Shown in pieces: positions 8,178 to 34,611 of a stretch of DNA of 37,258 nucleotides (positions within the stretch are counted from its first letter, which is position 1; each line of letters opens with the position of its first letter). The notes beneath the pieces are model-generated. The model had not been told where the DNA came from. It saw nothing but the letters and a program-made list of their open reading frames with translations, and made no database searches. The position numbers and the translations under genes were made by a program. Location: contig JBGTJT010000417.1 of NCBI GenBank assembly GCA_041744995.1, positions 1-37,258 of the forward strand, given 5' to 3'. This DNA comes from Pirellulales bacterium. Its GTDB lineage: Bacteria; Planctomycetota; Planctomycetia; Pirellulales; UBA7805.

Positions 8178-8182
8178 GAATC

Positions 8183-8244: not shown

Positions 8245-8432
8245 GGCGGCGTGCAAGACATTCATGTTAGCCAACTCATGATAACGGACTTACGTCGTTG
8301 CGCCCGCCATTGACGATGGACCGAGTCTGGATGTTGGGTTTGAGGCCAAGAGAGCGCGTTCGCTGGCCAGTTATTTCAAGACTGACAGAGCACCAGGTAT
8401 CGCCTGCGGCGGTGCCGCCTCAGGGGAAGTTC

Positions 8433-8499
8433 TTGCTACTCCTTTAGTAATGTACTATAATCAAGACTAATAGCCCATAATATGTTCACTCTATAGTAC
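8433..8499 (+). promoter_or_regulatory. hipBA promoter with inverted-repeat operator candidate
   Basis: TTGCTA (8433-8438), a 17-nt spacer, then TATAAT (8456-8461). The inverted repeat GTACTATA (8452-8459) / TATAGTAC (8492-8499) overlaps the -10 box and ends 3 nt before the hipB ATG. The patch is locally AT-rich. Confidence 0.45.
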
Positions 8500-8502
8500 G
8501 TT

Positions 8503-8838
8503 ATGCCGAGTAGTAAACAAGCGTTCCTGCCGAAGCACCAGCGAGTATTCAAGCAAGTTGGAGAGCAACTTCGTTTGGCCCGCCTGCGGCGTCGACTCTC
8601 CGCGGCGCAGGTTGCAGAGCGGGCAGGGATCAGCCGCAACACGCTCTATTTGTTGGAAACCGGTAGCGCCAGCTCTTCGATCGCCACCTTGTTCCGGGTG
8701 TTGATTGTACTTGGCCTGCAAGAAGACTACGCGCAGATTGCTATGAACGATGAACTGGGCAGGCGAATTCAAGACGCGAAACTCTCTAGCCCGCGCAAGC
8801 GCGCCCCCAAGCGATCTCAAACGAAACGAAGCGATTAG
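8503..8838 (+). CDS. hipB: XRE-family HTH antitoxin, HipB-like
   Basis: HTH segment LRLARLRRRLSAAQVAERAGISRNTLYLLETG. The stop lies 6 nt before hipA. Confidence 0.8.
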   Translation: MPSSKQAFLPKHQRVFKQVGEQLRLARLRRRLSAAQVAERAGISRNTLYLLETGSASSSIATLFRVLIVLGLQEDYAQIAMNDELGRRIQDAKLSSPRKRAPKRSQTKRSD

Positions 8839-8844
8839 AACCGC

Positions 8845-10110
8845 ATGACGCGTGAGATTCATGTTTTCGGTGATTGGCGAGAGCTGGGCGGCGCGCAGCG
8901 AATCGGACTATTGCGCGCCGATCGGGTTCATGGTGCGGAAACATTTTCATTTGAATATGACTCTACGTGGTTGGAAAGCGGCCACACGTTCCAGCTCGAT
9001 CCTGAGTTGCAGTTTTACGAGGGGCCTCAGTATACGGGTAACAAGCGGAACTCAAACTTTGGACTCTTCCTGGACTCAAGCCCCGACCGCTGGGGACGAA
9101 CGATCATGACACGTCGCGAGGCTATCCTCGCACGACAAGAGAATCGCGACCCGGGCATTCTCTATGAATCAGACTACTTGCTCGGTGTCCACGATCAGCA
9201 GCGGATGGGAGGATTGCGGTTTAAGGAAGAACAGGATGGCGAATTCTTGTCCAGTTATGATGGCCAGGATGCACCACCATGGGCGCGTCTTCGCGAGTTG
9301 GAGAACGCCGCCTGGCAAATCCAGACGCACGATCGCAATCATGATTCTGAGGTGAGAGAATGGATCCATCTCTTGATGGCGCCGGGTTCATCCATCGGCG
9401 GCGCTCGACCCAAGGCGGGTGTTTGCGATGAAGACGACAATCTATGGATCGCCAAATTCCCAGGCCGCAACGACGAGTTCGATGTCGGTGCGTGGGAAAT
9501 GGTGGCTTACCGGTTGGCTGTGAACGCCGGCTTGAATATCGCGGAGTCCCAGGCTGTTAAATTCGGCAGGCCCCACCACACTTTTATGACGAAGCGTTTC
9601 GACCGCGTTGTCGATAATCTGGAAACGAAACGCCTGCACTTTGCCTCAGCCATGACAATGCTCGGATACGCGGATGGAGCCAGCCATCACGAGGGGGCAA
9701 GTTATCTCGAGATCGTGGAATTCCTGATGCAACATGGCGCCGAAGTCGAAGTCGATTTGCACGAACTCTGGCGGCGGATTGTATTTTCGATATGTGTCAC
9801 GAACACCGACGACCATCTTCGCAATCACGGCTTCCTCCTGGAAAACGGCGGCTGGAAACTCTCGCCCGCGTTCGACCTGAACCCGAATCCGGACGGCGCC
9901 GGATTGCATCTGAATATCTCGGAAGCCGATAACGCGCTAAGTCTCGACTTGGCCCGTGGTGTTGCCGAATTATTTCGTTTAGGCGGGGCTGAGGCCGATA
10001 CTATCATTCAACAGGTGCTGGCGTCCGTCGCTCAGTGGAGCGATGAGGCTGATAAACTGGGGATTGCTCGCCACGAACAAGAGCAGATGAAACGGGCGTT
10101 TCGGATTTAG
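8845..10110 (+). CDS. hipA: Type II toxin HipA-family serine/threonine kinase
   Basis: HipA N-terminal coupling region (AETFSFEYDSTWL), GSSIGGARPK, and the catalytic loop NTDDHLRNHGFL. Confidence 0.9.
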   Translation: MTREIHVFGDWRELGGAQRIGLLRADRVHGAETFSFEYDSTWLESGHTFQLDPELQFYEGPQYTGNKRNSNFGLFLDSSPDRWGRTIMTRREAILARQENRDPGILYESDYLLGVHDQQRMGGLRFKEEQDGEFLSSYDGQDAPPWARLRELENAAWQIQTHDRNHDSEVREWIHLLMAPGSSIGGARPKAGVCDEDDNLWIAKFPGRNDEFDVGAWEMVAYRLAVNAGLNIAESQAVKFGRPHHTFMTKRFDRVVDNLETKRLHFASAMTMLGYADGASHHEGASYLEIVEFLMQHGAEVEVDLHELWRRIVFSICVTNTDDHLRNHGFLLENGGWKLSPAFDLNPNPDGAGLHLNISEADNALSLDLARGVAELFRLGGAEADTIIQQVLASVAQWSDEADKLGIARHEQEQMKRAFRI

Positions 10111-10324
10111 CTGGCCGCCTTCCATGAAGGGCTAATGCTACCGCAGAAGAACGAATACTGGTGCGACACCGCCCCAGCATGATCGACAACACAAGAAAGG
10201 TGTACAAGATCACCTTCGAGTCATAGCTTCTCCGCCCCCACGCCGCCCGCGCTGCTTGCTCGGGCCAGCACCGCTCCCTTACAATCCCCAATAGGCGGAG
10301 CCAACGCGCGGATCCGCGGCTGAA

Positions 10325-10386
10325 GTTCAACTGCGTTTTATCGCTCATCGCTCCGTGACGAGACGATAAAATGCTATTCGTTGCGA
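10325..10386 (+). other. attC-like imperfect palindrome (alternatively a hipBA terminator hairpin)
   Basis: GTTCAAC (10325-10331) fits RYYYAAC, and the distal end is GTTGCGA (10380-10386). Pairing is CAAC/GTTG (4 bp), then GCG/TGC, then a perfect 8-bp TTTTATCG/CGATAAAA, with an asymmetric 1/5-nt spacer. Confidence 0.45.
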
Positions 10387-10492
10387 TTACATCGTCACAT
10401 TCAATACACGCGACTTCCAAGACGTTGAAGCCTTCGGGGTGCAAGCTGTGCGGCCGGTCGAGTTTTTGCGAATCCTAGGTGAAATCCCATGA
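10370..10492 (+). pseudogene. PIN-domain toxin, C-terminal remnant only (about 40 codons)
   Basis: Translation is NAIRCDYIVTFNTRDFQDVEAFGVQAVRPVEFLRILGEIP*. The xDYIVTxNxRDF pattern followed by a (T/R)PxEFL tail is the usual PIN toxin C-terminus. An in-frame TAA sits at 10367 and no N-terminal PIN sequence lies upstream. The stop overlaps the next ATG (ATGA). Confidence 0.45.
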
Positions 10493-10728
10493 GCACAACC
10501 CTTAGTTTGCGACTACCGAACTCCATCCACAAGCAGCTCAAAGAGTATGCCGAGCAGGATGGCATTTCGATGAATCAATTCATCGCCACGGCGGTGGCCG
10601 AGAAACTGGCGTCGCTGGCGACAATCGAATATCTGGAGCAGCGCGCTCAGCGTGGCAGCAAAGAGAAATTCAACGCGCTGCTGGCCAATGCGCCGGACGT
10701 CGAGCCGGCGGAAGACGACAAGCTTTAA
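10489..10728 (+). CDS. Ribbon-helix-helix antitoxin (HicB-like/Arc-type)
   Basis: MSTTLSLRLPNSIHKQLKEYAEQDGISMNQFIATAVAEKLASL is a typical RHH antitoxin N-terminus. It overlaps the PIN remnant by 4 bp. Confidence 0.75.
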   Translation: MSTTLSLRLPNSIHKQLKEYAEQDGISMNQFIATAVAEKLASLATIEYLEQRAQRGSKEKFNALLANAPDVEPAEDDKL

Positions 10729-11083
10729 GCGACAATTCAATCATGCGATCCGGCCGACGACGAACAGCACTAAAGTTCGGGACGGAAAAGTCCAGCGGAA
10801 GAATCGTTCTGCTTTGACCCCGAACTACACGAACACGCCACAAGCCCGGCCGGCAGTGGATCGTCAGCGGCCGGGCGCCGGGTTTCGCCATCTCATCACC
10901 AAGAAGCAGCTCTACCAGTTTGATGCACATCTTCTTGCATGAACTAGGCCACCATCACGACCGCATGACGACCAAGTCGAAGCGTCGATCAAGTCGTGGA
11001 GAGGCATACGCTGAGCAATACGCAAATCGATATGCGAATCACATCTGGGATGCGTACTTCAGTTCATTCGGTTGGTGATCCCT

Positions 11084-11308
11084 ATGATCGGCCAGAAGTG
11101 GACCATCACGAAAGACGACATCTCCGACTGGACCTGGGAAGCCAAGACAATTTTCAACGACCCATATTCGATAACGATTCCCGATCCAGAGCACTCCGAT
11201 GAGGAGGAACGTTGGCTGGATATCGGCATATCCGCTGATGGCCGGCTGCTGGTGGTATGGTATACTGAACGTGGCGAGAAAATACGAATAATCGGCTTCT
11301 CGCGTTAG
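11084..11308 (+). CDS. brnT: BrnT-like (DUF497) toxin, shortened, with no BrnA partner
   Basis: FNDPYSITIPDPEHSDEEERWLDIGISADGRLLVVWYTERGEKIRIIG matches the DUF497 core (F-DP...D..HS..EER...G......L.VV.T.R...IRII). The 3' end runs into repeat A1. An alternative TTG start lies at 11072. Confidence 0.55.
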   Translation: MIGQKWTITKDDISDWTWEAKTIFNDPYSITIPDPEHSDEEERWLDIGISADGRLLVVWYTERGEKIRIIGFSR

Positions 11309-11310
11309 GT
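11264..11310 (+). other. Short attC-like hairpin at the BrnT-like 3' end
   Basis: ACTGAAC (11264-11270) ... GTTAGGT (11304-11310, fits GTTRRRY). Pairing is AACG/CGTT plus CGAGAA/TTCTCG with a 3-nt bulge (tgg). At 47 nt it is short for an attC. Confidence 0.35.
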
Positions 11311-11481
11311 TGAAACGCGTGGGCACTACTTGTGATTGTGACCGCGTTGATTTTCGTCGTTATTGACCGAATCGCATGCGCCCGATCGTTTTGGTATGCT
11401 AAACATCGCCGGCGGATGGAGCTGACCGAAAGCGCACCGGACAAAGGACAGGCCTCCGGCTCGGCAACTCATTCGCCAACC
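11293..11481 (+). repeat. Repeat family A, copy 1 (about 189 nt, noncoding)
   Basis: Aligns by hand to 14312-14501 with about 17 differences. It starts CGGCTTCTCG(C/T)GTTAGGTTGAAACGCGTGG and ends GCCAACC about 30 nt before the next start codon. Confidence 0.85.
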
Positions 11482-11510
11482 AAGTACCCGACTGAAATCT
11501 CATCCCGAAC

Positions 11511-11987
11511 ATGGACGAATCACCATACGCTTCACCGCGATACACCGCTGACTCATCCATGCCATCCGCAACGCGTCCGCTCGATACCCTGTGCTTCGTC
11601 ATTAATTTCGCGGTTGCCATCCTCTTCTTGATCGCGTGCGTTGTCTCGATTGGTGCCGCCGACAATTTCTTCGCCTTCATTGGCGGTTTGCTTTTTGTGC
11701 TCCCGGTTTGCTGCTACGCGATCGCCGAATGGGTATGCTGGTACCGAAAACGGCACTGGCTTTTTCGCCAACTCGGGATATTAAACCTACTGCTTGCCGG
11801 ATTCGTCGTGTTTGGACTTGTAACAAATGTCGGCGAGGCATTTATGGCCGACGAACCGATTGATCCCTGGTTCATCACAATATTTGGGAGTGGCTTCGCA
11901 TTCGTCGCGGGTTACCTTGTTTGGTGTGGATGGCGACGCTTTCACGCGATCCCCAGTGTACCCGACACGATCCAGAACGACGGGTAA
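11511..11987 (+). CDS. Small integral membrane protein (about 4 TM helices), unknown function
   Basis: Hydrophobic segments include LCFVINFAVAILFLIACVV, FIGGLLFVLPVCCYAIAEWV, ILNLLLAGFVVFGLV and FITIFGSGFAFVAGYLVW. Confidence 0.55.
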   Translation: MDESPYASPRYTADSSMPSATRPLDTLCFVINFAVAILFLIACVVSIGAADNFFAFIGGLLFVLPVCCYAIAEWVCWYRKRHWLFRQLGILNLLLAGFVVFGLVTNVGEAFMADEPIDPWFITIFGSGFAFVAGYLVWCGWRRFHAIPSVPDTIQNDG

Positions 11988-12224
11988 ATCGGGGAAGTGC
12001 GGTCAATCGCTGTCCGCGCTGCCCACAACATCTGGCATGCGCCGTCCGCACCAGGCGGTTCGACGTAGTGGAGCAAGCTCGGCGTAGAAAGATGTTGAAG
12101 TCTGCCGCTTTGACCCTTAAAATACGAATTGGATGATGCCGTCCTGCTCGAGCCAGTGTAGGGGCAGCGGCGGGGAGGCCGTGCTTGGTCTATGCGTTTG
12201 GGGATCTCTTCACGGGGACAAGAA

Positions 12225-12455
12225 ATGTCAACCGAAAGTATTTCTATTACCGTTGACGCCGATGCAGCTCGTACGTTCTGCCAAGCATCGCCCGATGCGC
12301 GTCGCAGAATAGAGTTTCTTCTCGGCCTGCGTTTGCGTGAACTGACCTCGAAAGATGCACGTTCTTTGCAGGTGATTATGGACGAGATCGGCACGGAGGC
12401 GGAGGCTAAGGGACTTACGCCCGATATGGTGGAGTCGATGCTACGTGACGACTGA
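12225..12455 (+). CDS. Putative antitoxin of a PIN-toxin pair
   Basis: The ATG at 12225 is preceded by GGGGA. The protein is small and acidic (MSTESISITVDADAARTF...GLTPDMVESMLRDD). Its stop overlaps the start of a PIN-like ORF. Confidence 0.5.
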   Translation: MSTESISITVDADAARTFCQASPDARRRIEFLLGLRLRELTSKDARSLQVIMDEIGTEAEAKGLTPDMVESMLRDD

Positions 12456-12588
12456 TTGGCGGACGGTCCTCGACACTGGCGTGGCAGTCAGCGCCATATT
12501 GCTCACGACACCCTATGATTCCGTTGAGCACATGCAGTCGGAAGTCCAGAGAGATATAAACGAGTGGACAGAGGTCGACGGCACCTAA
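12445..12588 (+). pseudogene. PIN-domain toxin, N-terminal remnant (47 codons)
   Basis: A GTG at 12445 overlaps the antitoxin stop. VTTDWRTVLDTGVAVSAILL resembles the PIN N-terminus (vvLDTNVlvSall). The ORF stops after 47 codons, with the TAA lying inside ACCTAAC of the next palindrome. Confidence 0.4.
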
Positions 12589-12645
12589 CCACCGGCTGCC
12601 GTTGACCGGCGACGCCCGCGAGTACAATGAGGCGGTCGGTTGGAC
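12583..12645 (+). other. attC-like imperfect palindrome
   Basis: ACCTAAC (12583-12589) fits RYYYAAC exactly and GTTGGAC (12639-12645) fits GTTRRRY exactly. Pairing is 12585-12590 with 12638-12643, then 12591-12594 with 12633-12636, with one bulged C at 12637. Confidence 0.45.
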
Positions 12646-12702
12646 GCCTGCTCCCGCGGGTGGCCGGCAACTGAGCCTTTTACGTTCTGCCAATAAGAAA
12701 CG

Positions 12703-13368
12703 ATGCCGTTCGCTGTGGAACATGATGGTTTCGCGATCGCTCAAGGCATTGTCGCCGAGACGGATCGTCGCCTCCTGCTCGATGCGTTGGGCGTCCCGCA
12801 AGGTGCTGGTGCGCGTGGGGTGCTCGCCGCTTCCGCTGTTCGGGCATTTGCGCGATCCGAAGCGATTGAGTCGCTTGTGTCAGCATATCTCGGTGGTCGC
12901 CCGATGCCGGTTCGGGCAATCTTCTTCGATAAATCATCGTCTTCGAATTGGCTCGTTCCATGGCATCAAGACCTGACTATCGCGGTAGCGAGCAAGTGCG
13001 AGGCGCCAGGATTTGGGCCGTGGAGCATGAAGGATGGGATTCCGCATGTCCAGCCGCCCGATGAATTGCTCAAGCAGATGATCGCGTTGCGGCTTCATCT
13101 CGATGATTGCGATGCGTCGAATGGAGCCCTGCGAGTAATCCCGGGGTCGCATAAATCCGGTCGGCTGAATCCCGATCAGATTTCCGCTGTGCGAGCATCA
13201 TCCGCAGAGGTGGTGTGCGAGGCTTCAGCGGGAGATGCTCTCCTCATGCGGCCGCTTCTCCTTCATGCGTCGAGTAAGTCCGTCAGTAATCGGCGAAGGC
13301 GGATCCTCCATATCGAGTATTGCTGCGGCGAGCTTCCCGCGGGCATGACGTGGCACGATGCGGCATAA
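12703..13368 (+). CDS. Phytanoyl-CoA dioxygenase (PhyH) family Fe(II)/2-oxoglutarate oxygenase
   Basis: WLVPWHQDLTIAV (the H-x-D iron ligands), GALRVIPGSHKSG and LLHASSKS are typical of the PhyH family. Confidence 0.8.
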   Translation: MPFAVEHDGFAIAQGIVAETDRRLLLDALGVPQGAGARGVLAASAVRAFARSEAIESLVSAYLGGRPMPVRAIFFDKSSSSNWLVPWHQDLTIAVASKCEAPGFGPWSMKDGIPHVQPPDELLKQMIALRLHLDDCDASNGALRVIPGSHKSGRLNPDQISAVRASSAEVVCEASAGDALLMRPLLLHASSKSVSNRRRRILHIEYCCGELPAGMTWHDAA

Positions 13369-14327: not shown

Positions 14328-14501
14328 GTTGAAACGCGTGGGGCACTGCTCGTGCCTGGGACCGCGTTGATGTTCGTCGTTATTGACCGAATCGCACGCG
14401 CCCGATCGTTGTGGTATGCTAAACATCGCCGGCGGATGGAGCGGAGCGAAACCGCACCGGACAAAGGACGAGCCTCCGGCTCGGCAACTCATCTGCCAAC
14501 C
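14312..14501 (+). repeat. Repeat family A, copy 2 (about 190 nt, noncoding)
   Basis: See 11293-11481. It contains GTTAGGT at 14323-14329 and ends about 33 nt before the ATG at 14535. Confidence 0.85.
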
Positions 14502-14534
14502 TGTTCTGTGCCTCAACTGAAGCAGCCCCAAGAA

Positions 14535-15128
14535 ATGGAAAACTTGCTGGATGATTCACCGCGAATACTGATTGTCGCTGGCCCGAATGGATCGGGGAAG
14601 ACGACGCTTGCGCTCGAGTACTCGCGGGAATTTGGGCTTCCCTACGTGGGCGCCGACGCGATTGCTGCGACGCTGAATCCCGCCAATCCCATGGCTGCCC
14701 AAGTAGCTGCGGGCAGGCAGTTCCTACAAACGCTGGAAGAATACACGTCGCAGAAGACGTCCTGCGTCTGCGAATCGACTCTTTCCGGTTTGACGATGCG
14801 GAACTTCATCGCGTCGGCGACGAAGGCTGCGTATTCCATCGACATGGCGTTTCTGTTTGTAGATTCTGCAGACGCATGCGTTGCCCGAGTCGCCGAACGT
14901 GTCCGAAAGGGCGGCCACGACGTTCCGGAATCAGACATTAGACGCCGATTCAAGAGGTCGCTTCGCAACTTCTGGCGAATCTATCGTGAACTGGCCGATA
15001 ACTGGGTATTGGTTTATAATGGCTTGACAACGATGCAGGACGTCGCGAGCGGCTCCCGCGACCAAACCACGGTTCGGAATCAAGAACTCTACTCGGCCTA
15101 TTTGGCACTTGTTGGTGAAACACCATGA
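14535..15128 (+). CDS. Zeta-toxin-like / COG4185 P-loop ATPase
   Basis: Walker A ILIVAGPNGSGKTT. The downstream RVRKGGHDVPESDIRRRF segment is typical of zeta/PezT-like kinases. The ATG at 14535 was chosen because the upstream part of the ORF is repeat A. Confidence 0.75.
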   Translation: MENLLDDSPRILIVAGPNGSGKTTLALEYSREFGLPYVGADAIAATLNPANPMAAQVAAGRQFLQTLEEYTSQKTSCVCESTLSGLTMRNFIASATKAAYSIDMAFLFVDSADACVARVAERVRKGGHDVPESDIRRRFKRSLRNFWRIYRELADNWVLVYNGLTTMQDVASGSRDQTTVRNQELYSAYLALVGETP

Positions 15129-15489: not shown

Positions 15490-16656
15490 TTAAGACATCG
15501 TCCACTCGACGACTTCGCCCGCGAGATTGGCCGTGTTGACGGCTCGGAAGGAACGGCGTTCGCGAGATTTCGCGGGCACGTCGAACTGGTTGCCGGCGAT
15601 GGCTTCCCAGGGACCGGTGGCAACGCGCGACTCGAAATGGCTGAAGTTGGGCGCCCAGGTCGACAGCGTCAGGCGCGTGCCGCCGTCGGGCAGTTCGGTG
15701 CAGGCAACTTCCGTGCGTCCGACCGGCCAGTTGATCGACGGCTTCTGGTCGGCGAGCAACTGCTCCGCCTCGGGGATCAGTGGCGGGATGATCTTGCCTG
15801 GCGGGGCGGCCAGGAAGAATTGCTTCACCGCGGCGGGATGCCCGGGCGGATAGTGCGAACCCAGGTAGTCGTTGCGGTGGGCGTAGTAAAGATACTGCCC
15901 GAATTCCAGGTTCATACCGGTCACGCTGCCGCCGCGCATGTTCCTTTCCCGCAGCGACTCGCCGGCGGCGCCCAGGGCAACGACCTCGACGCCGCTCAGT
16001 TCACCGCACCGTCCCTTGTGTCGCTTGACGGAATCCAGGACGGCGTCCGGCGGCAATCGTGCGTCGACACCGAGTTGCTGTTTCAGCTCGCTCCACGCCT
16101 GCTGCAGATCGAGCGCCCCAAGCCATTGTCCCGCCCGGCGGTAAGCCACATTGAAGTCGCAATCGATCAGCACCCACTGTCCGTGCTGCGGCAAGTAAAC
16201 CTCGGTGGCGGCATGCCCCAATCTGCTGCCGTCGCGGCTCATGCCGAGTAGTCGCGCGGTGTAGCCGCGGGTAATCAGGGCATGCCCAAGCAGCAACGCG
16301 AACGGTCGGCAGGTAAGCGGCGTGCCAGAGCGGGCCAGCCGCAGCAATTGGTGCGGGTCGTCCATGCCTGGCGGCCGATCGGCCACGCCATGTTCGGTCA
16401 GCCCGCGGAGCCGATCGCAGATTTCAAACGGATCGTGCCGCCCGTCGAGCACCTTTTCGCACGCCTCGGCAAACTGCACCACGCGGGGGTGGCCGAGCGC
16501 CTCGTGCTGAAAACTCTGGGCAAGCGATGCCGCGCCGCTGCCGCCGCCGGGAGCACCTGGACCGTAGTCGACCTCCGTCCGCACCGACGGATCATAGACC
16601 CGATACGCGGCCGCGGCCAGCTTCAGCTTGGTTCTTCGCAGCCAGTGGGTCGCCAT
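15490..16656 (-). CDS. Transglutaminase-like superfamily protein
   Basis: The Cys-His-Asp pattern TCRPFALLLGHALITRGYTARLLG ... GHAATEVYLPQHGQWVLIDCDF fits the family. The start was set at MATHWLRR (16656) to avoid overlap with the upstream gene. Confidence 0.6.
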   Translation of the reverse strand: MATHWLRRTKLKLAAAAYRVYDPSVRTEVDYGPGAPGGGSGAASLAQSFQHEALGHPRVVQFAEACEKVLDGRHDPFEICDRLRGLTEHGVADRPPGMDDPHQLLRLARSGTPLTCRPFALLLGHALITRGYTARLLGMSRDGSRLGHAATEVYLPQHGQWVLIDCDFNVAYRRAGQWLGALDLQQAWSELKQQLGVDARLPPDAVLDSVKRHKGRCGELSGVEVVALGAAGESLRERNMRGGSVTGMNLEFGQYLYYAHRNDYLGSHYPPGHPAAVKQFFLAAPPGKIIPPLIPEAEQLLADQKPSINWPVGRTEVACTELPDGGTRLTLSTWAPNFSHFESRVATGPWEAIAGNQFDVPAKSRERRSFRAVNTANLAGEVVEWTMS

Positions 16657-16690: not shown

Positions 16691-17866
16691 CTAGCGTGGC
16701 TGCATATAGGCGGACAGGTTGCCGCGCGTCGCCTGCGGAGGAACCGCGTCGGCGATATCCTTGTCATCGGCCAACGTAAAGGCGATGACCAGCGGAAATT
16801 TCCCCTCCGGCGGATCAGGATTGTACCGGCCGGCGCCCCAATGTTCCCCGAGGACCAGCAGGTCGAAGCGAGTCAAGCCAAAGCGGTTCGCTGTTACCAG
16901 GCCCCGCAGTTTCGCTCGGTATCCCCGCTCGCCGTCGGCGGTTTCAAGATGCAGCTCTCCCTGCAGGATGCCGTCGGCCAGCGTCAAGTCGCATTGGCGA
17001 ATCTCGTCGGCCCGCCACATGGGCGGCTCGCCCCGGGTGTTGTCGACCAAATGAAACCGCGCGATTCGTTGCCGTAGCGACTCGGGAACGGCGCCGTCGA
17101 CGATCGAGCGAATCTCGTCGGCGGTAATCCACAGGTTGTCGCGGGAAACCGCCTGCTGGCGTATCGCCAGTCGCTCGTCCTCGGTCGAATCGTAGCCGCC
17201 CAACACCTGGGCCTGCACTCGCACAGTCGCCACGTCGGCCGGCCGGGTGATGTTCCAGTTGTCTTGGGAGTCGTCGTCCTCAATCGCCTGGTACTCCGCG
17301 CCGCGGGCGAGCAGCACGGTAAACTCGTTAGCGGCTTCGACCAGCTTCTGATGCAGGAAATTGGCGGAATGGGTGTTGGAATAATGAAACAGTTTGCCGT
17401 CCGGCGCGGCGATGTAATAGCCTTGCGTCGTCAGATTGAAATCCCGGCGGGGGCCTTGGCCGGCGATCTTGCGATAGAACTCGCCTTCGGCGTCTTGCTG
17501 TCGACGCTCGTTGGCCTGATTGATCGCTACCGGGACGAACCGCGTCCGCAGCAGCCGAATGATGCGAGGATCGGAGAAGACCGACACGCGGCCGATGACG
17601 CCGTTGTTTCACGTGCAGCCCAGCGGATTACCGTCCATCGCCCAGATGAAAATCGGCATCTGCCGTTGGGCCGCCTCGCGTTGCGCAGCCAGTAGTTCGA
17701 TCTTCCAGGGCACGGTCCGCCACGCTTCGTCCGGAATGGCCGCGTACCGCCGATGCGCCTGCTCGAACTTCTGCCGGAAGAGTTCGGTCTCGTCCGCGGT
17801 GGCGACGCCGGGGGCGGCAACGAACAGAGCAAGCGACATTGTGAAATAGGAGTAGGAATGTCGCAT
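16691..17866 (-). CDS. Secreted thioredoxin-like (Thioredoxin_7/DUF255-like N-domain) protein with one in-frame TGA at 17609-17611
   Basis: ORFs 17609-17887 and 16691-17587 share a frame and are separated only by a TGA. The ATG at 17866 is preceded by GGAGG 7 nt upstream. Signal peptide FTMSLALFVAAPGVATA. The junction reads PIFIWAMDGNPLGCT-TGA-NNGVIGRVSVFSDPRIIRLL. It is either a selenoprotein or a pseudogene. Confidence 0.55.
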
Positions 17867-18062
17867 GGGAAAACCTCCACAAACCACGTTCGAGGTGCCC
17901 TTTTAGTATGCACGCTACATCACGGTGGGGCAAAGTGGAATCCTGCCAGAACGTTCGAAATTGCCTGACGTTAATGTCGGGCTCGATTTTGGTTTGACGC
18001 GAGAATGAAACTCCCCAATCCCTTTGAGGCGCCCTCAAAATTGGCAAAGACTGCGGGAAAAC

Positions 18063-18122: not shown

Positions 18123-18368
18123 ATGAAAGCCAATGAATGGAGCGTCGCCGACGCCAAGAGCAAACTGAGCGAGGTACTGAACCGCGCCGAGCGGGAGGCC
18201 CAGGTTATTACCCGACGGGATCGACGGTACGTCGTCATGGATGACGATCATTATCGTCAGCTTACCGGCGCAACGCCCACGCTCAAGGATCTGATCCTCA
18301 ACGGGCCGAGCCTCGAGGGGGTGGATCTCAACCGTGACCGATCGCCCGACCGGGAGCTTGACCTGTGA
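18123..18368 (+). CDS. Phd/YefM-family antitoxin
   Basis: MKANEWSVADAKSKLSEVLNRAEREAQVITRRDRRYVVM is a typical Phd/YefM N-terminus. It overlaps the toxin gene by 4 bp. Confidence 0.8.
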   Translation: MKANEWSVADAKSKLSEVLNRAEREAQVITRRDRRYVVMDDDHYRQLTGATPTLKDLILNGPSLEGVDLNRDRSPDRELDL

Positions 18369-18793
18369 GAACCCTGGTCGACACCTGCGTGCTGTCGGAA
18401 GTGCGCCATCCCCAGGGAAACCCGCAGGTCCGCGAGCGGTTTGAGGCGATGGCGGCCGAGACGATCTACCTGAGCGTGATTACGGTCGGCGAAATCATTA
18501 AGGGTATCGAGAAGCTTGGCCACGGCCCGAAGCGCCGGGCGCTGACGGTTTGGCTGGAGGAACTCTCTACCGTCGCCGGTGACCGCATCCTCCCAATCGA
18601 ATCGGAGACGGCGGTCATCTGGGGTGAGATCACCGCGCGCCTAGAGAAAGCAGGCCAACGACTCCCGACGAGCGACGGCCTGATCGCCGCCACGGCCCTC
18701 CGGCACGGGCTGCACCTGATGACCCGCAACGTCGGCGACTTTGAATCGACGGGCGTGATGCTGATCAACCCCTGGACCGATGGCTCGGAATAA
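18365..18793 (+). CDS. vapC: VapC-type PIN-domain ribonuclease toxin
   Basis: A GTG start overlaps the antitoxin stop. LVDTCVLSE supplies the first acidic residue, and DGLIAATALRHGLHLMTRNVGDF is the PIN C-terminal signature. Confidence 0.85.
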   Translation: MRTLVDTCVLSEVRHPQGNPQVRERFEAMAAETIYLSVITVGEIIKGIEKLGHGPKRRALTVWLEELSTVAGDRILPIESETAVIWGEITARLEKAGQRLPTSDGLIAATALRHGLHLMTRNVGDFESTGVMLINPWTDGSE

Positions 18794-20995: not shown

Positions 20996-22084
20996 TTATG
21001 AACGGCCGGGGTGGGTCTCCGGTAAACCTGAGAGCGCTTGGCGGTCAGATCGATCGGTAAAATACTGCCTCGCGTAAAATTCGCGGTATTTTCCGCTCTT
21101 GACCCGTTTCCACCACGCTTCATGTTCTTGGTACCACGCGATCGTCCGCTGCAAGGCTCCTGGCCACTCGCTACGAGTCGGTTGCCAGCGGAGTTCCCCC
21201 TCAAGCTTGCTGGCATCAATGGCGTAACGTCGGTCATGACCGGGACGATCCGGCACGAACTCGATCGACGCCGCACCCTTGCCCATCAGTTCGAGAATCT
21301 TGTGCGTGAGCTCAAGGTTCGAGCGTTCGTTGTTACCCCCAATATTGTAAACCTCGCCGACGCGGCCTTGCTCCAGCACCGTGAGCAGCGCTTCGCAGTG
21401 ATCCTCTACATGCAGCCAATCGCGAACATTTTTCCCGTCTCCATACAGAGGCACTTTGGACTCCTCCAGTATATTTGTCACAAACAACGGGATCACTTTT
21501 TCCGGAAACTGATAGGGCCCAAAATTGTTTGAGCAGCGGGTTACCAGAACGCTGCTCCCGTGAGTCCGGTGATAAGCCAGCACGAGCAAATCGCTGGCTG
21601 CCTTGCTGGCGCTATAGGGGCTATTGGTGTGCAAGGGCGTCTGTTCAGTGAATTTCAAATCCGTCTGATCCAGCGGAAGAGAGCCATAGACTTCATCGGT
21701 GCTGACATGGAGGAAACGCTTTGGGCTGCCTCTCCCCCACACTTGCAGTGCGGCGTCCAGCAAGACTTGAGTCCCCAGGACATTCGATTCTATAAACGGC
21801 CTAGCATCAATAATAGATCGATCAACATGGCTCTCGGCGGCTAGATGAACAACTGCGTCGCAGTCCGGCAGCAAAGTCTCCAGCAACGGGCGGTCGACAA
21901 GATTGCCATGCACAAATCGATAGCGAGGTTCCTCGGCCAAATCTGCTAAATTCTCGAGGTTGCCGGAATAGGTCAGGGCATCGAGATTGGTGATCTGATA
22001 ATCGGGGCGGTGGTCCAGCACAAACCGGACGAAGTTCGAGCCAATAAAGCCGCAGCCTCCGGTGACCAACAGATGGCAACTCAT
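20996..22084 (-). CDS. rfbB: dTDP-glucose 4,6-dehydratase
   Basis: LLVTGGCGFIGSNFV Rossmann motif, PYSASKAASDLL (YxxxK), and HVSTDEVYG. The start is at MSCHLL (22084). Confidence 0.9.
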   Translation of the reverse strand: MSCHLLVTGGCGFIGSNFVRFVLDHRPDYQITNLDALTYSGNLENLADLAEEPRYRFVHGNLVDRPLLETLLPDCDAVVHLAAESHVDRSIIDARPFIESNVLGTQVLLDAALQVWGRGSPKRFLHVSTDEVYGSLPLDQTDLKFTEQTPLHTNSPYSASKAASDLLVLAYHRTHGSSVLVTRCSNNFGPYQFPEKVIPLFVTNILEESKVPLYGDGKNVRDWLHVEDHCEALLTVLEQGRVGEVYNIGGNNERSNLELTHKILELMGKGAASIEFVPDRPGHDRRYAIDASKLEGELRWQPTRSEWPGALQRTIAWYQEHEAWWKRVKSGKYREFYARQYFTDRSDRQALSGLPETHPGRS

Positions 22085-22119
22085 ATCAGGTGAAATTCCT
22101 TTGGTGCGGAGTTCAAGAA

Positions 22120-22992
22120 TCAATCTCGGGGAAGCAGGCTGCGTAAGTAGTCGCCGTAGGGGTTTTTCAATTCGCTCCCGAGCTGCGCCAGTTGCTCGAC
22201 ATCGATGAAGCCCATCCGGTAGGCGACTTCCTCGATACAAGCGATTTTCAGTCCCTGGCGTTCTTCGATCGTGTGTACGAAATTGGCGGCACCAAGCAAT
22301 GCCTGCTCCGTGCCGGTATCGAGCCAAGCAAAACCGCGTCCGAATCGCTCAACATGCAACGCTCCCTTCTCCAGGTAGACTTGATTGACGTCGGTAATCT
22401 CTAGTTCGCCGCGTGCAGAGGGTTTCAGATCAGAGGCAACTTCTAGGACATCGTTGTCATAAAAATACAGACCCGTGACTGCCAGGTTGGAACGCGGGGC
22501 GGAGGGTTTCTCGATCAACCGCACCGGTCGCCCCGAATGGTCCATCTCAACGACACCGTAACGCTCCGGATCGCGGACTTCGTACGCAAACACCGTGGCA
22601 CCTTCCGGGCGGCATGCAGCCCGATTAAGAAAATCCTTCAACCCCTGGCCGTAGAAAATATTGTCGCCGAGTACCAGTGTGACGGGACTGGTTCCCACAA
22701 ACTCCCGACCAATCAGGAAGGCTTGGGGCAGCCCCCCAGGTTCGTCCTGGACCGCATAGGAAATCGAGATGCCGACTCGGCTGCCATCTCCCAAGAGTTG
22801 CCGGAACGCCTCGACGTCGCGCGGCGTGGAGATCAACAGGATCTCGCGAATGCCCGCCAGCATCAGAACTGAAAGTGGATAGTAGACCATCGGTTTGTCG
22901 TAGACCGGCAGCAATTGCTTGCTGACCGAGTGGGTGATCGGATACAACCGGGTGCCCGCTCCACCGGCCAGAATGATTCCTTTGCGATGCAT
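22120..22992 (-). CDS. rfbA: Glucose-1-phosphate thymidylyltransferase
   Basis: [55 protein letters not shown] is the near-canonical RmlA N-terminus. Confidence 0.92.
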
Positions 22993-22997
22993 GTTGG

Positions 22998-24077
22998 TTA
23001 TCCCGGGATCCGTGTGGTCGCTTGCTGTTCTTGGTAATTTCCGACTGGTTGGGGCTTACCGGCCTCAGTGTCCTTGGTGAGTACCGTGCGGATCGTATAC
23101 TGCGGCTTACGATTGATATTCAGATGCACCCGCCCTATGTATTCCCCAATGATTCCCAAGGCCAGAAGCTGAAGTCCCCCCAGTACCAATACGGCGACTA
23201 TGATCGATGCGTAGCCTGGCACCATGATGTTCGACAGCAGAGCCTGGATAAGGTAGTTCGCGCCGGTCGCCAACCCGATCACGGCGGCCAGGAATCCCAC
23301 GCAGGACGCCACTTGCAGCGGGATCAACGAAAAGTTTGTGAACAGATTCAATGCCAGCGTGATGAGTTTTCCGAGTGAGTAGCCGCTGCGACCGTTGGCC
23401 CGCGGGTGGTGCTCGACGATCACTTGGCCAATCCGTTGCGTATTCCATGCGAACAGCCCGTCGAGAAACGTGAAGTTCAAATTGTAGGGCAGGATCGCCT
23501 GAACAAGTTCCCGTCGCACGGCACGGAACGAGGTCACCGTGATTCGGGACCGGAACACCAGACGAAAAAACGTGTTTACCACCACTGATCCGAGATTGCG
23601 ACCGCCCGTGTGTTGTTTGCGGCGGTATTCTCCATACACCAGATCATAGTCGCCCGCCTCCAAGTGCGCTATAAGCTTAGGGATCTCTTCGGGCGGATTC
23701 TGTAGGTCGTCATCCAGCGTCACGAGGACTTCGCCCCGGGCTTGGCGAAATCCGCACATCAAGGCGTTGTGCTGGCCGTAGTTCCGCATCAAGCGAATCG
23801 CGGTCACGTGCAGCGGGTCGGCCTCCGCCAATTGCTGCAGGACATCCCAAGCGGCATCCGGGCTGTTGTCGTCGACGAATATGATTTCATAACTTGGCTC
23901 GCGCGCTGCGAATACGGCTACGATCCGCTCGTAGAGCGATTGTAGCGTGCTTTCAGAGCCATACACGGGAATCACCAAAGAAATCCGCGGTACTATGGAG
24001 TGGTCTAATGAATGCGCTGAATTCGCCACAAGGATTGCATCGGCTAGGGGATGGGACTGTAAGGGGACTGGGGCCAA
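22998..24077 (-). CDS. GT2 polyprenyl-phosphate glycosyltransferase (ArnC/GtrB/DPM1-like)
   Basis: [31 protein letters not shown] (DxD), and two C-terminal TM helices ([19 protein letters not shown] and [22 protein letters not shown]). The start is uncertain: TTG at 24077 or GTG at 24029. Confidence 0.75.
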
Positions 24078-24811
24078 AAGTGATAGACGTGTTCGACACG
24101 GGTCCGTTGGTAACCCTGCCGCTCATAAAAACTGCAAGCCGGCCTATTGTCCAGTTGAGTGACGACCTCCACCGTACGAATGCCCTGCTCGCTCGCCCAC
24201 TGGTGAGCCGCGCGCAACAAGGCACCGCCGACACCGAGGCCCCGCATCGCCTCGACAACCGCGATCAACCCCAGCACCGCCCGATCAGACTGGACGGCCA
24301 CCGTCACGAATCCCACCAGCTTGGCGTGGGCAGCTTCCGCAATAAAGACCGCATCGGCCACCTCATGGAGCGTACTGCGATTAATCCAAGTATAGTATAG
24401 CTGCTCAAAAATCGCGCGCGGAAACCGCGGGTCGAGCCGAAATCGCGATTCCAACCCCGCCTCCAGGCTGAGTTTTTGCAAGTCCGCGGAGGCGGTACTC
24501 ACCGGATGCTCCCGAACTATAAGACGCGGTTCACCAGGGCTTGCGGTGACATACTGTGCGGCGGTGTCCGACCGCTCAAACACCGCCTTTCTGGCCACCA
24601 GCGCACCGCCAAACTCTGCCAGAAGCGAGTCGGTCACGGGAGCTTCCGGCGAACTAAACCAGTACAACAACCGCACTCCTTCCGTCCTGGCCCGTCGCAA
24701 CACTTGGTGCAACTCCAGTTGGCTGGTGACTTTGCCCGTAATGCGGCTAACGGGAAAACCGAATTCGCAGGAATCCCAGGCCAATTTGGTCAACACAGGA
24801 GAGGTCGACAT
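24044..24811 (-). CDS. wecD: WecD-like dTDP-4-amino-4,6-dideoxy-sugar N-acetyltransferase (GNAT)
   Basis: N-terminal LAWDSCEFGFPV (compare E. coli WecD LTWENAFFG). RFRLDPRFP...YYTWINRS. GNAT core GLIAVVEAMRGLGVGGALL and TQLDNRPACSFYERQGY. Confidence 0.65.
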   Translation of the reverse strand: MSTSPVLTKLAWDSCEFGFPVSRITGKVTSQLELHQVLRRARTEGVRLLYWFSSPEAPVTDSLLAEFGGALVARKAVFERSDTAAQYVTASPGEPRLIVREHPVSTASADLQKLSLEAGLESRFRLDPRFPRAIFEQLYYTWINRSTLHEVADAVFIAEAAHAKLVGFVTVAVQSDRAVLGLIAVVEAMRGLGVGGALLRAAHQWASEQGIRTVEVVTQLDNRPACSFYERQGYQRTRVEHVYHFWPQSPYSPIP

Positions 24812-26010
24812 TACGACAATTTCTCCCGTTTGAGCGTCGCTGGTGGCTTCCCGGCTGACTGCGATTCGCCTTCCTTCAGGAATCGTCGGACGGTTTCACA
24901 GATAAGCTGCTGATCGTCTGCCCCCAACTCGACAAACATCGGCAGCCGCAATAGCCGTACGCTCAAATCTAGCGTCTGCGGCAGATCGTCTGGTGGTTGG
25001 CCGAGCGAGCGTCCCATCGGAGAGTCGTGCAACGGAACATAGTGAAAGGCGGCGCGAATCCCAGCCGCCTGAAGATAGTGCAGCAACGCGTCTCGTAGCG
25101 CACCGGTGGGCAACAGCAGATAGAACATGTGGTAGTTGCTAGTGCAGTCAGCGGGCATCCTTGGCAGTCGCGCTAGCCCCAAGTCCTCCAGCGATTGCAA
25201 GCTATTCTGATACCGGTCGTAAACTGCGGCCCGCAAGCGGGCAATCTCGTCCAGTTGTTCAAGTTGTGCCAGCAAGAAGGCACAGGCAAGTTCACCTGGA
25301 ACGTAACTGGAGCCGATGTCGATCCAGGTGTATTTGTCGATTTCGCCGCGGATGAACTGCTGGCGATTGGTACCCTTGTCCCGTAGGATCTCCGCCCGCC
25401 GAAGGAACCGCTCGTCATTGACGCATAAAGCGCCCCCTTCTCCGCAGACATAATTTTTGGTGTCATGAAAGCTGTAACAGCCCAGATGCCCAATCGACCC
25501 GAGTGGTCGTCCCTGGTAATGCGAGTTCACTGCTTGGGCCGCGTCCTCAATCACGATCAACCGATGGCGTTTGGCAATTGCCATGATCGCTTCCATTTCG
25601 CAAGCCACCCCAGCATAATGGACCGCTACGATAGCGCGGGTGCGATCCGTGATGACGGACTCGATCTTCGTCTCGTCGAGATTGAGCGTATCCGGCCGAA
25701 TATCAACAAAGCGGGGCTGGGCACCTGCTCGGACAAACGCGGTAGCGGTGGAGACGAACGTGTAGGAAGGCATGATCACTTCATCACCCGGCTGCAGGTC
25801 GCAAAGCATCGCCCCCATTTCCAAGGCGGCGGTGCAGGAGGGAACCATCAGCACCTTACGGATCCCAAACTGCTGTTCCAGCAAGGCTGCACAGGCCTTG
25901 GTGAACTTGCCATCACTGGCAATTCCAGTTTCCGTGACGGCTTGAGAAACATACCTCAGTTCATTGCCAGCAACGTAGGGTTTCGTGAAGGGAATGGGCT
26001 GGTTCATCAA
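24811..26010 (-). CDS. wecE: dTDP-4-amino-4,6-dideoxygalactose transaminase (WecE/RffA-like, DegT family)
   Basis: Long collinear matches to E. coli WecE as I recall it: VLMVPSCTAALEMGAMLCDLQPGDEVIMPSYTFVSTATAF, VHYAGVACEMEAIMAIAKRH, HDTKNY (the PLP lysine) and DKGTNRQQFIRGEIDKYTWIDIGSSY. Confidence 0.85.
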   Translation of the reverse strand: MMNQPIPFTKPYVAGNELRYVSQAVTETGIASDGKFTKACAALLEQQFGIRKVLMVPSCTAALEMGAMLCDLQPGDEVIMPSYTFVSTATAFVRAGAQPRFVDIRPDTLNLDETKIESVITDRTRAIVAVHYAGVACEMEAIMAIAKRHRLIVIEDAAQAVNSHYQGRPLGSIGHLGCYSFHDTKNYVCGEGGALCVNDERFLRRAEILRDKGTNRQQFIRGEIDKYTWIDIGSSYVPGELACAFLLAQLEQLDEIARLRAAVYDRYQNSLQSLEDLGLARLPRMPADCTSNYHMFYLLLPTGALRDALLHYLQAAGIRAAFHYVPLHDSPMGRSLGQPPDDLPQTLDLSVRLLRLPMFVELGADDQQLICETVRRFLKEGESQSAGKPPATLKREKLS

Positions 26011-26424
26011 ACGCTTCGGGAGAAATGGGCCGCTTGCAAGGAAAATATCAGCCAGAGCAATAGGGAAGGCACGAGCAAGTTACTAATACACATCAAATCA
26101 GCTCAGCAACGGGGCATGGCCCAATTTTAATCGGTACCACGGCGACAGCGCAGGCCGAGCCTACGTAGCATAGTTGATGGCTATGGTTCAGACAAATGGC
26201 CGCCGCCGGTTTTTAATTCTCCGGCCCGCGATTGAAAGGCTGGCGACTCGTCGTGGAACTGGCCGCTCTCTTGGTTTAGGATAGGGAACGGAAATCGCGG
26301 TAAAGATTCGATCGGTAGCCGATTCTCAATCGATACTTCGCCATCGTTAGTTCGATTCGGCTTCACCACGACATTCGTTCGCTCAAGCGTTAGACTTGTT
26401 GGCTGTGTTCAAGGGGATGCCAGG

Positions 26425-28038
26425 GTGATCGAGCAAAAAGCGGAATACGCGTCAAAGACGGAACACTCGCCACGGGTAGAGGCGGTGCTCCGACGGAAAC
26501 GGACCCTGGCGGGGGCGGCGATCGTCGCGGTGGGTGCGGTGTATTTGGGCTTTCTTTATCCGAGCCCGGAATTCTGCGCCTACAACAAGGACGACGCCGG
26601 CTGGTTCATGACGATGGGGATGAATCTCGCCGAGTACGGGCGCTATACGACGGACACCTTTCCGCAAGAGGATTATGGTCGCCACGCTACTTGGCCGCCA
26701 GTATTTCCGCTGCTGCTCGCGGCGGTGGTTAAGTTGTTTGGCCTGAACTGGTATGCGATCAAGTTGCTGATGGCCTGCCTGGGGCTGGCAAATCTGTGGC
26801 TGCTGTGGCTGTTGTTGCGGACCGTCACGGCTGAACGAGGTGAGTCTGATCTGGCCTGTTGGACGGTATTGCTCACAGCCTTGTCGCCAATGTATTTTTT
26901 ATTCAGCCATATGACCATGACGGAAATTCCGTTCATGCTCGCCAGCACCGCTGCCTTGCTGTTGCTGCTGCGCACCACAACCTGGCAAGGCGCGTGTTTG
27001 GCGGGACTGGTGGGGGCTGTCGCGTTCTTTACTCGCGGGTATGGGATCGTCCTGCTGCCGACGGGAGTCCTGGTATTCCTGATGCAACGCAACTGGCCCG
27101 TTCGCAAGAGACTACTGGCACTGGGCTGCTTCGCGTTGCCGTTGGTTGTGAGTTTTGTTTTTTGGTCCTGGTACACCCGGCACGTCATTGCCTCCCAGCC
27201 GCTCGACGCGATTACCTCGTCGTTTGGCAACTTGGGCGTGATCTCCGCGAACCTCCGCCGTCCCGCGATCGAGTACCTTCAGGACGTTTATTGGTATCAT
27301 GCCAGATTCGTCATCCACACTCTCCTGCCCTATGTCTCCAAGGAGACGGCATTGGCGTCGGACGCCCTGGCCGCCTTGGGAGGCTTCTTGGCCGCACTCG
27401 CATTTGTGGGCTGTTTAATCTGGGCGAAACGAGGCGAATACGTACCGGTGCTGTGGTTGGTGGGCTCCGCGGCCTTACTGCTGATTACGGGGATTAACAG
27501 CCCCCGTTACCACTTAACGCTATTGCCTTTTACCACGTTTTTCTTACTGACGACCATCCGACAAGTGTCCCTCCAAGTGCATTACTGCAGGTGGCTCTAC
27601 CCTGGCGTGGTTGGAGTGCTGGTCGCAGGCAACTCGATCGGGTTGGTTTCGCACTTGGCGAATCCAGATTCCTTGCGTTTTCTTTCACCGTACTGGAAAG
27701 ACTTCCAGTCCGCATCGCAGTGGGCTCGTCAGTCCCTTCCCGCAAGGTCCGTCATCGCAACCCATGCTCCACAAAACACCCGAGCTGGAAGTGGCTTTCG
27801 GTCCATTCGAGTTACTCCGGTAAATTCTGAGTGGCCCCCTGCTCAACTGGCTAGAGAAGTAAATATCTATGTTGTCGGGCCAACTCCAGGAGAGGACTTC
27901 ACCGAGCGATCGGTTCTCAGTGAGAGCTACGGTCGGCTCGCAACAGACCGTCGATTCGAACTAATATTCGATAGTGGCTTGATCAGTATCTGGCAGTTTT
28001 CCAACCCTAGTCAAGCTGTCGACTCGGAATCTCCGTAA
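26425..28038 (+). CDS. GT-C fold membrane glycosyltransferase (ArnT/PMT_2-like, GT39/GT83-type)
   Basis: At least 10 hydrophobic helices. The first extracytoplasmic loop carries the acidic pair YNKDDAGWFMTMGMNLAEYGRY, followed by WPPVFPLLLAAVVKLFG. GTG start. It is divergent from the wecE operon. Confidence 0.7.
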   Translation: MIEQKAEYASKTEHSPRVEAVLRRKRTLAGAAIVAVGAVYLGFLYPSPEFCAYNKDDAGWFMTMGMNLAEYGRYTTDTFPQEDYGRHATWPPVFPLLLAAVVKLFGLNWYAIKLLMACLGLANLWLLWLLLRTVTAERGESDLACWTVLLTALSPMYFLFSHMTMTEIPFMLASTAALLLLLRTTTWQGACLAGLVGAVAFFTRGYGIVLLPTGVLVFLMQRNWPVRKRLLALGCFALPLVVSFVFWSWYTRHVIASQPLDAITSSFGNLGVISANLRRPAIEYLQDVYWYHARFVIHTLLPYVSKETALASDALAALGGFLAALAFVGCLIWAKRGEYVPVLWLVGSAALLLITGINSPRYHLTLLPFTTFFLLTTIRQVSLQVHYCRWLYPGVVGVLVAGNSIGLVSHLANPDSLRFLSPYWKDFQSASQWARQSLPARSVIATHAPQNTRAGSGFRSIRVTPVNSEWPPAQLAREVNIYVVGPTPGEDFTERSVLSESYGRLATDRRFELIFDSGLISIWQFSNPSQAVDSESP

Positions 28039-34606: not shown

Positions 34607-34611
34607 ATTGC

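Follow-up and report, generated by a model that had tools for sequence, protein, structure and literature searches.

Here, we present an analysis of a split open reading frame (ORF) on the minus strand of a contig from a Pirellulales bacterium (JBGTJT010000417.1 of assembly GCA_041744995.1, positions 1 to 37,258; this whole stretch of 37,258 nucleotides is referred to as the window). The analysis was motivated by the original prediction that a single in-frame TGA at 17611-17609 marks a secreted thioredoxin-like protein as a candidate selenoprotein. Our findings make it very likely that this TGA is a genuine selenocysteine (Sec) codon and that the locus is a genuine selenoprotein gene. This conclusion is carried by the conservation of the TGA in related loci, the existence of homologues with Cys at the same position, a covarying hairpin just downstream of the codon, and genes for Sec decoding in related genomes. 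We infer that Sec is inserted at this codon in this organism and that the protein is periplasmic and engages in redox chemistry.

The two minus-strand ORFs at 17609-17887 and 16691-17587 are in one frame and are split solely by the TGA, a layout confirmed from the sequence and the ORF translations. The complete gene (16691..17866, minus strand) likely starts at the ATG at 17866 and comprises 391 codons plus a stop, the TAG at 16693-16691; counted from this ATG, the TGA is codon 86. Evidence that this is a single gene comes from tblastn matches in 80 genomes, which cross the TGA in one frame, and from the full-length homologues with Cys, in which the ORF is uninterrupted. A putative Shine-Dalgarno-like GGAGG, read from the sequence at 17874..17878 (minus strand), is separated from the ATG by a 7-nt spacer. 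The product starts with MRHSYSYFTMSLALFVAAPGVATA|DE, in which residues 1-24 (17795..17866, minus strand) form a predicted signal peptide with an AxA cleavage site; this assignment was made by inspection and agrees with the secreted nature originally proposed, and homologues of the window protein have similar hydrophobic N-termini. Around the interruption, the window reads PIFIWAMDGNPLGCT-TGA-NNGVIGRVSVFSDPRIIRLLRTRFVPVAIN, giving the context PIFIWAMDGNPLG-C84-T85-U86-NNGVIGRV in the protein. The redox motif is Cys84-Thr85-Sec86 (TGC ACG TGA; 17609..17617, minus strand, with the Sec codon at 17611-17609), and the C-x-U spacing is as originally read.

The TGA is far beyond chance only when set against its relatives: all related loci read at the DNA level keep TGA in the same column. 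The DNA-level set comprises 125 rows, i.e., the window and 124 related loci, with some contigs recurring between collections; it is made up of 80 loci from GTDB species, 40 metagenome loci, the individual loci L081, L082, L083, and L088, and the window. The 80 GTDB loci were read from among 186 stretches encoding a relative, which were found in a scan with one genome per GTDB species. TGA was present at the Sec codon in 125/125 rows: in the GTDB loci (80/80), it lies inside WAMDGHPLGCT-TGA-NNG, and it was also found in 40/40 of the further metagenome loci. The motif is near-invariant on both sides of the codon (WAMDG[H/N]PLGCT-U-NNG). The GTDB loci are mostly from metagenome-assembled genomes (MAGs) of Pirellulales, Planctomycetales, Isosphaerales, and Gemmatales, and also include Stieleria marina K23_9 (CP036526), in which the gene is located at ~2.307 Mb. 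Overall, the related loci, which come from many genomes and metagenomes, span 35-65% protein identity. The closest relatives of the window, L082 and L083, are 62-65% identical and both have TGA, as does L088, a member with 35% identity; a metagenome search for the subclade of the window identified no member closer than L082 and L083.

In protein databases, the family appears mostly in truncated form. A search with the joined product against 5.8 billion proteins returned 1610 homologues, and essentially all of the top 120 are ~300 aa long, with 76-77% query coverage and an N-terminus slightly past the TGA column, by a few residues; family members sourced from NCBI are likewise truncated and are named "hypothetical protein." The sole full-length hit to a Sec form, P0004, has W at the TGA column, where the DNA reads TGA. 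P0004 comes from L081 (JGI Ga0068459_110757, a Planctomycete-like contig), in which the TGA was translated as Trp via genetic code 4.

Using P0004 as the query in a HMMER search of 1.84 billion cluster representatives (clusters at 50% identity), we identified 1402 relatives, most of which are N-terminally truncated at the same place while ~16 are full length; these ~1,400 clusters include homologues with Cys and homologues without redox residues. Cys occupies the Sec column, in the motif GCTC, in P0129, P0130, P0153, P0163, and P0238, and P0232, P0241, and P0252 have kept this Cys and lost the Cys at -2; other full-length homologues have lost the whole motif. The Cys forms, which are a minority among the full-length homologues and far outnumbered by the Sec forms, were seen as proteins, with confirmation at the DNA level for P0130; here, the Cys codon is genuinely TGT, and no hairpin follows it. 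This pairing of Sec and Cys homologues is the classical selenoprotein signature. The comparison of homologues that the original prediction called for gave TGA at every locus read at the DNA level and Cys in a minority of homologues.

Some homologues carry the module as part of a larger protein. In P0140, P0163, P0205, and P0241, the whole module lies C-terminal to a Ser/Thr kinase and a hydrophobic stretch, and in P0253, it lies within a protein that also matches the FecR domain. In these kinase and FecR fusions, the Sec column holds Cys or lacks a redox residue. We read this architecture as suggesting an extracytoplasmic location and a sensory role in those paralogues. In a separate observation on the Cys forms, the gene for P0129 is flanked on its contig (JGI 3300048101) by an asparagine synthase gene on one side and a radical-SAM/SPASM pair on the other, with several glycosyltransferase genes also among its neighbours, a context unlike that of the Sec forms.

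Downstream of the UGA, the window can form a minimal hairpin resembling a Sec insertion sequence (SECIS) at 17579..17593 (minus strand), with a stem of GGCCG (17593-17589) and CGGUC (17583-17579) enclosing the loop CGUGU (17588-17584). Based on RNAalifold, the 60 nt from the UGA contain one hairpin in the family, in which U17-C-G-A-C21 pairs with G27-U-C-G-A31 around the loop C22-G-U-G-N26. In this main-family stem, 400/400 cells are paired, compared with 3.5-40% of cells in slid controls. Pair 18-30 is CG in 72 sequences, UA in nine, and GC in one; as the two columns fall at the third positions of Leu and Ser codons, this covariation is purely at the RNA level. Pair 21-27 is CG in 81 sequences and UA in one, and further compensatory variants occur in L088 (GAAC/GUUC), L113 (UCGAU/AUCGA), and L123 (6-bp stem). 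Synonymous-codon entropy, computed over 82 distinct sequences, drops to 0.1-0.6 bits at codons +1 and +4 to +9; most four-fold or six-fold codons elsewhere have 1-2 bits. The apical loop starts 18 nt after the UGA in most relatives and 20 nt after it in the window. The window, L082, and L083 share a CGUGN loop and the 5-bp stem GGCCG/CGGUC (-5.9 to -6.5 kcal/mol), and their hairpin is located 2 nt further downstream than that of the main family. A search of ~1 Mb for TGA followed by 11-17 nt and a 5-bp stem with a CGTG loop gave 120 matches in the selenoprotein family and 14 scattered, chance-like sites elsewhere; no other gene in the window matches the pattern of UGA and hairpin.

A longer hairpin had originally been proposed (17570..17596, minus strand), in which AUCGG and CCGAU add a lower stem around a 6-nt internal loop. 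This structure, written as AUCGG-CCG-(CGUGU)-CGG-ucuucu-CCGAU, is present at 17596-17570, and its core of CCG, CGUGU, and CGG is conserved; however, the extended form has a free energy of -5.4 kcal/mol in the window and only -1.1 and -2.7 kcal/mol in the two closest relatives, such that conservation of the lower stem AUCGG/CCGAU is not supported. In the case of L001, the local minimum free energy (MFE) structure (-8.9 kcal/mol) keeps the core hairpin and adds outer pairs. The fold of the 60-nt segment from the window sequence alone is not thermodynamically special (z-score 0.05).

The consensus for bacterial SECIS elements (bSECIS) includes a loop of 3-9 nt, a stem of 4-16 bp, a distance of 16-37 nt from the UGA to the loop, a G within the first two loop positions, and a free energy of ≤ -7.5 kcal/mol (PMC13188914). 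The family hairpin fits this consensus in loop size (5 nt, C-G-U-G-N), stem length (5 bp), the order of G then U, and spacing (18 or 20 nt). Compared with the SECIS of Escherichia coli fdhF, for which a 17-nt upper stem-loop is the minimal element, the hairpin starts 13-15 nt past the UGA rather than 11 nt, and both expose G and U in a small apical loop. We take G23 and U24 of the main family, numbered from the U of the UGA, to be equivalent to the loop positions G23 and U24 of fdhF that contact SelB. In contrast to fdhF, the family stem is only 5 bp long and lacks both an obvious bulged U and a long lower stem, and the loop is CGUGN rather than GGUC.

Genes for Sec decoding are present next to several of the related genes. 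Using ARAGORN, we found six tRNAs in 813 kb of related loci, three of which are tRNA-Sec: those in L051 (7383-7482) and L053 (4057-4155) follow the family gene at a distance of 250-300 nt, and that in L059 (234-328) lies 2.3 kb upstream of it. All three were confirmed by the Rfam model RF01852 (67-69 bits). The 37-kb window itself contains no tRNA. In addition, L060, from a Rubripirellula MAG, carries a selB-selA-selD operon (8064-13155, minus strand) 1-6 kb from the family gene. In this operon, SelB is cut by the end of the locus, SelA matches TIGR00474 (507 bits), and SelD carries a fused pyridine nucleotide-disulfide oxidoreductase domain at its N-terminus (TIGR00476, 240 bits; TIGR03169, "Nterm_to_SelD," 366 bits). 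Full selA/B/C/D sets have been reported in several Planctomycetes (PMC4807772).

The joined protein appears to have two domains. The N-terminal domain (~residues 50-195; 17282..17719, minus strand) is thioredoxin-like (DUF255/Thioredoxin_7-like), and the UGA falls between its β1 and α1. The C-terminal domain (~residues 205-391; 16694..17254, minus strand) matched no known fold and contains the near-invariant motif RFHLVDNTRGEPxxW. An AlphaFold2 model was built on P0004, which is 48% identical to the window protein, using an alignment of 64 sequences; it has a predicted local distance difference test score (pLDDT) of 91.1 and a predicted template modelling score of 0.88, with a pLDDT of > 90 in the C-terminal domain. 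In the N-terminal domain of the model, β1 (PIFIWA) is followed by a 9-residue loop (DGHPLGCT-U), α1 directly after Sec, β2 (FVPVAI), helices, β3, β4, and a final α-helix. This order fits the thioredoxin-like β-α-β-α-β-β-α topology, with Sec preceding the helix at 90-97, and, together with weak matches to Thioredoxin_7 and DUF255, is consistent with the thioredoxin-like start proposed originally. Against Pfam Thioredoxin_7 (PF13899; gathering threshold 27 bits), the score is 13 bits (E 0.12) for the window protein and 22.9 bits (E 9.7e-5) for P0004, which also matches PF03190 with 18.4 bits (E 2e-3); all of these are below gathering, and altogether, five of 17 full-length homologues match Thioredoxin_7/DUF255 at E ≤ 0.1. 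Foldseek against the PDB gave no match with E < 0.001; a thioredoxin-like protein ranked 46th with a probability of 0.30, and the top hits for the C-terminal half, which is β-rich and without a Pfam family, were weak and START/SRPBCC-like. No meaningful alignment to E. coli thioredoxin was obtained with hhalign.

The sole Cys near the Sec is located at -2, making the site C-x-U-x-x-G. In a weak profile match to the PDB entry 3ira (E 0.05), the first and second Cys of CHWC align with Sec and with the Gly at +3, respectively. Because of this alignment, weak as it is, and the helix-cap position of Sec in the model, we suggest that Sec occupies the first, nucleophilic position of CxxC and caps α1. 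The TGA had originally been assigned to the position of the second redox Cys; the model and the 3ira alignment instead place it at the first.

The original prediction named as its alternative a nonsense pseudogene or a sequencing or assembly error, with the TGA being accidental to this contig. The window is a single contig, and TGA is one mutation from TGC, TGT, and TGG. However, the same TGA is present in 124/124 related loci despite protein identities of 35-65%, both flanks are strongly conserved, and the frame is preserved; we consider that this comparative conservation rules out an accidental TGA for all practical purposes. A different possibility is that the UGA is a real stop, that the locus produces a secreted peptide of 85 aa plus a protein of ~300 aa with its own initiation site, and that the hairpin serves coupling or re-initiation. 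Consistently with this, gene callers start the downstream ORF at a GTG, ATG, or TTG shortly past the TGA, and 63 of 82 sequences have GTG as codon +4. However, codon +4 is GTT, GTC, GTA, or ATH in the remaining sequences, arguing that there is no conserved downstream start, and no conserved ribosome-binding site is visible. Moreover, the Cys homologues are continuous ORFs, termination at the UGA would cut a single predicted thioredoxin-like domain after β1 and before α1, the protein made from the downstream ORF would have no signal peptide, and four relatives have selC or selABD linked to the family gene. We therefore regard two separate polypeptides as very unlikely.

Insertion of a standard residue, i.e., Trp, Cys, or Gly, at the UGA by near-cognate decoding or under a reassigned code would also yield a continuous protein. 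One pipeline used code 4 for P0004 and placed W at the site, and Cys would be chemically equivalent there. Nevertheless, TGA is the normal stop of four of 20 well-supported genes in the window, the standard code is used in Planctomycetes, and TGY or TGG, one mutation away, is seen in no related locus at the DNA level. In addition, the hairpin with G and U in its loop at a SECIS-like distance and the adjacency of tRNA-Sec or selABD point specifically to Sec. Accordingly, we consider readthrough with a standard residue to be very unlikely.

Several observations weigh against the identification of the locus as a selenoprotein gene. The 37-kb window, apparently an entire contig, contains no selA, selB, selC, or selD. 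The core hairpin alone has a free energy of -5.0 to -6.5 kcal/mol, which is weaker than the bSECIS criterion, and in the window, the local MFE structure (-13.4 kcal/mol) prefers other pairings over the hairpin. The variant with the shifted loop is backed by three sequences only, and Rfam gave no match in the window at the gathering threshold or at E ≤ 10. All matches to thioredoxin families are below curated thresholds. Finally, P0123, P0127, and P0136 have lost both C/U residues altogether; because several homologues have done so, their sequences suggest that the two-domain module can function without redox chemistry.

If the TGA is a Sec codon, as we conclude is very likely, 16691-17866 (minus strand) would be one gene for a secreted selenoprotein of ~367 aa after removal of the signal peptide. 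SelB together with Sec-tRNA(Sec) would decode the UGA at 17611-17609 as Sec, and the small hairpin that follows within the coding sequence, with its 5-bp stem and its CGUGN loop exposing G and U, would recruit SelB and Sec-tRNA(Sec). In the N-terminal thioredoxin fold of the DUF255/Thioredoxin_7 type, Sec would cap α1, with a Cys two residues before it (C-T-U-N-N-G), and the pair of C84 and U86 probably alternates between the selenol/thiol and selenylsulfide states. We speculate that the protein functions as an extracytoplasmic (envelope) thiol/selenol oxidoreductase and that the C-terminal domain, with its RFHLVDNTRGEP motif, could bind a substrate or a partner.

Because thioredoxin-fold selenoproteins are the commonest class, the window family is ordinary in kind. 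It shares with known bacterial thioredoxin-fold selenoproteins (thioredoxin, peroxiredoxin-like, DsbA-like, and SelW-like, among others; PMC13188914) one in-frame UGA in a redox site at the N-terminus of α1, the occurrence of Sec/Cys pairs, a SECIS in the coding sequence just 3' of the UGA, and truncated annotations. It differs from them in its C-x-U-x-x-G site with the partner Cys at -2 rather than UxxC or CxxU, in a 5-residue insertion (GHPLG) before the site, in a C-terminal domain of ~190 aa without a Pfam or PDB match, and in that Sec forms outnumber Cys forms. The DUF255/Thioredoxin_7 proteins (PF03190, PF13899; 3ira) have the same succession of β-strand, active site, and F.DPE(V/I)..L(L/M)...FV.V.VD; however, the window family has no second Cys at +3, an extra loop insertion, and a different downstream domain. 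DUF255 proteins carry an (α/α)6 domain. Among curated selenoprotein models, those for VPGUxxT types 1 and 2 (NF041382 and NF041383; "OS_HP5") scored best, with a weak match over residues 51-126, and these are also thioredoxin-like selenoproteins longer than a bare thioredoxin domain. We rejected membership in VPGUxxT type 2 (NF041383), which gave 18 bits where its cut-off requires 275 and whose motif, VPG-U-xxT, differs from the GCT-U-NNG found here. At thresholds of E ≤ 1 for the window protein and E ≤ 0.1 for the full-length homologues, the remaining NCBIfam selenoprotein ("exception") models gave no match.

A thioredoxin-like fold with C-x-U spacing is also found in Sec.1/Sec.2 (PF13192; CxU/UxC; PMC13188914). 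Those are small PF13192 (Thioredoxin_3) proteins, whereas the window protein is a secreted two-domain protein of 391 aa and has no PF13192 match at E ≤ 1; the distinction from Sec.1/Sec.2 was made by description. A 2026 review lists 119 prokaryotic selenoprotein families, never names Planctomycetes, and has as C-x-U entries rhodanese, UshA-like proteins, ferredoxin-thioredoxin reductase, and the small PF13192 proteins. Going by the descriptions, none of the 119 families is recognisable as the window family, and none of the selenoprotein families from Global Ocean Sampling (GOS) fits it. It is therefore probable that the family is uncatalogued among known selenoproteins, a comparison that did not extend to every representative sequence. 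The combination of Sec predominance, C-x-U geometry, a minimal conserved SECIS, occasional adjacency to selC or selABD, and a new C-terminal fold makes the family notable.

The original prediction also pointed to a co-oriented transglutaminase-like gene downstream (15490..16656, minus strand; Pfam Transglut_core, E 4e-4, below the cut-off). The co-orientation is real and recurs in L083, where an orthologue also lies downstream (1472-2653); however, no gene neighbour is conserved across the family (84 loci). The transglutaminase-like gene is rare, with 11 database hits, and other homologues (L085-L087) belong to polysaccharide clusters, where they are flanked by Wzy_C and Wzt/ABC genes. A transglutaminase-like gene has been reported in Planctomycete Sec operons (PMC4807772). 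We rejected a link between this neighbour and such operons, as its homologues lie in Wzy/ABC-transporter polysaccharide clusters, and the gene is probably not functionally tied to the selenoprotein gene. Apparent neighbour clusters of sulfatase, DUF1501, and DUF1553 genes were also rejected, as these are paralogues abundant in Planctomycetes; the window itself carries DUF1559, PSCyt/DUF1549/DUF1553, and DUF1501 genes, which mark it as Planctomycete DNA.

Elsewhere in the window, two ORFs of 81 aa and 142 aa that overlap by 4 nt (18123-18793, plus strand) are encoded on the other strand immediately upstream of the selenoprotein gene and look like a type II antitoxin and a PIN-domain toxin. Further genes of the toxin-antitoxin type encode a HipA-like kinase toxin (8845-10110, plus strand; HipA_C, E 2e-48) and a zeta-toxin/AAA_33-like protein (14352-15128, plus strand). 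A large glycan-biosynthesis cluster occupies 20996-36400 and includes genes for a dTDP-sugar dehydratase/epimerase, a nucleotidyltransferase, GT2, GNAT, a DegT aminotransferase, PMT_2, acyltransferase-3/SGNH, a sulfotransferase, and GT4, as well as two ORFs (33668-34861 and 35276-36400) without Pfam hits.

Taking these findings further, we tentatively propose, as a possibility that we hold with low confidence, that the window protein belongs to an unrecognised, nearly Sec-only family that is present in at least 186 GTDB species genomes, is a principal user of the Sec trait in Planctomycetota, combines a C-x-U selenylsulfide with a new fold, and has a role in redox sensing or signalling in the envelope. 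Such a role, rather than housekeeping oxidoreduction, is suggested because Cys-containing and redox-less modules have been re-used in kinase and FecR proteins. Should the selenoprotein assignment be confirmed, hundreds to thousands of database entries would be mis-annotated as truncated 300-aa "hypothetical proteins" and orphan 85-aa ORFs, among them those of cultured strains such as Tautonia plasticadhaerens and Stieleria marina. These annotations would be repaired by a curated model, which would also add the family to the prokaryotic selenoproteome. Moreover, the short covarying hairpin would provide a compact natural SECIS for studying recognition by SelB outside Proteobacteria and Firmicutes. 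A C-x-U site whose Sec takes the nucleophilic position in a thioredoxin fold would be an uncommon redox geometry; together with the new C-terminal domain and the fusions of the paralogues to kinase and anti-sigma modules, it would merit biochemical study.

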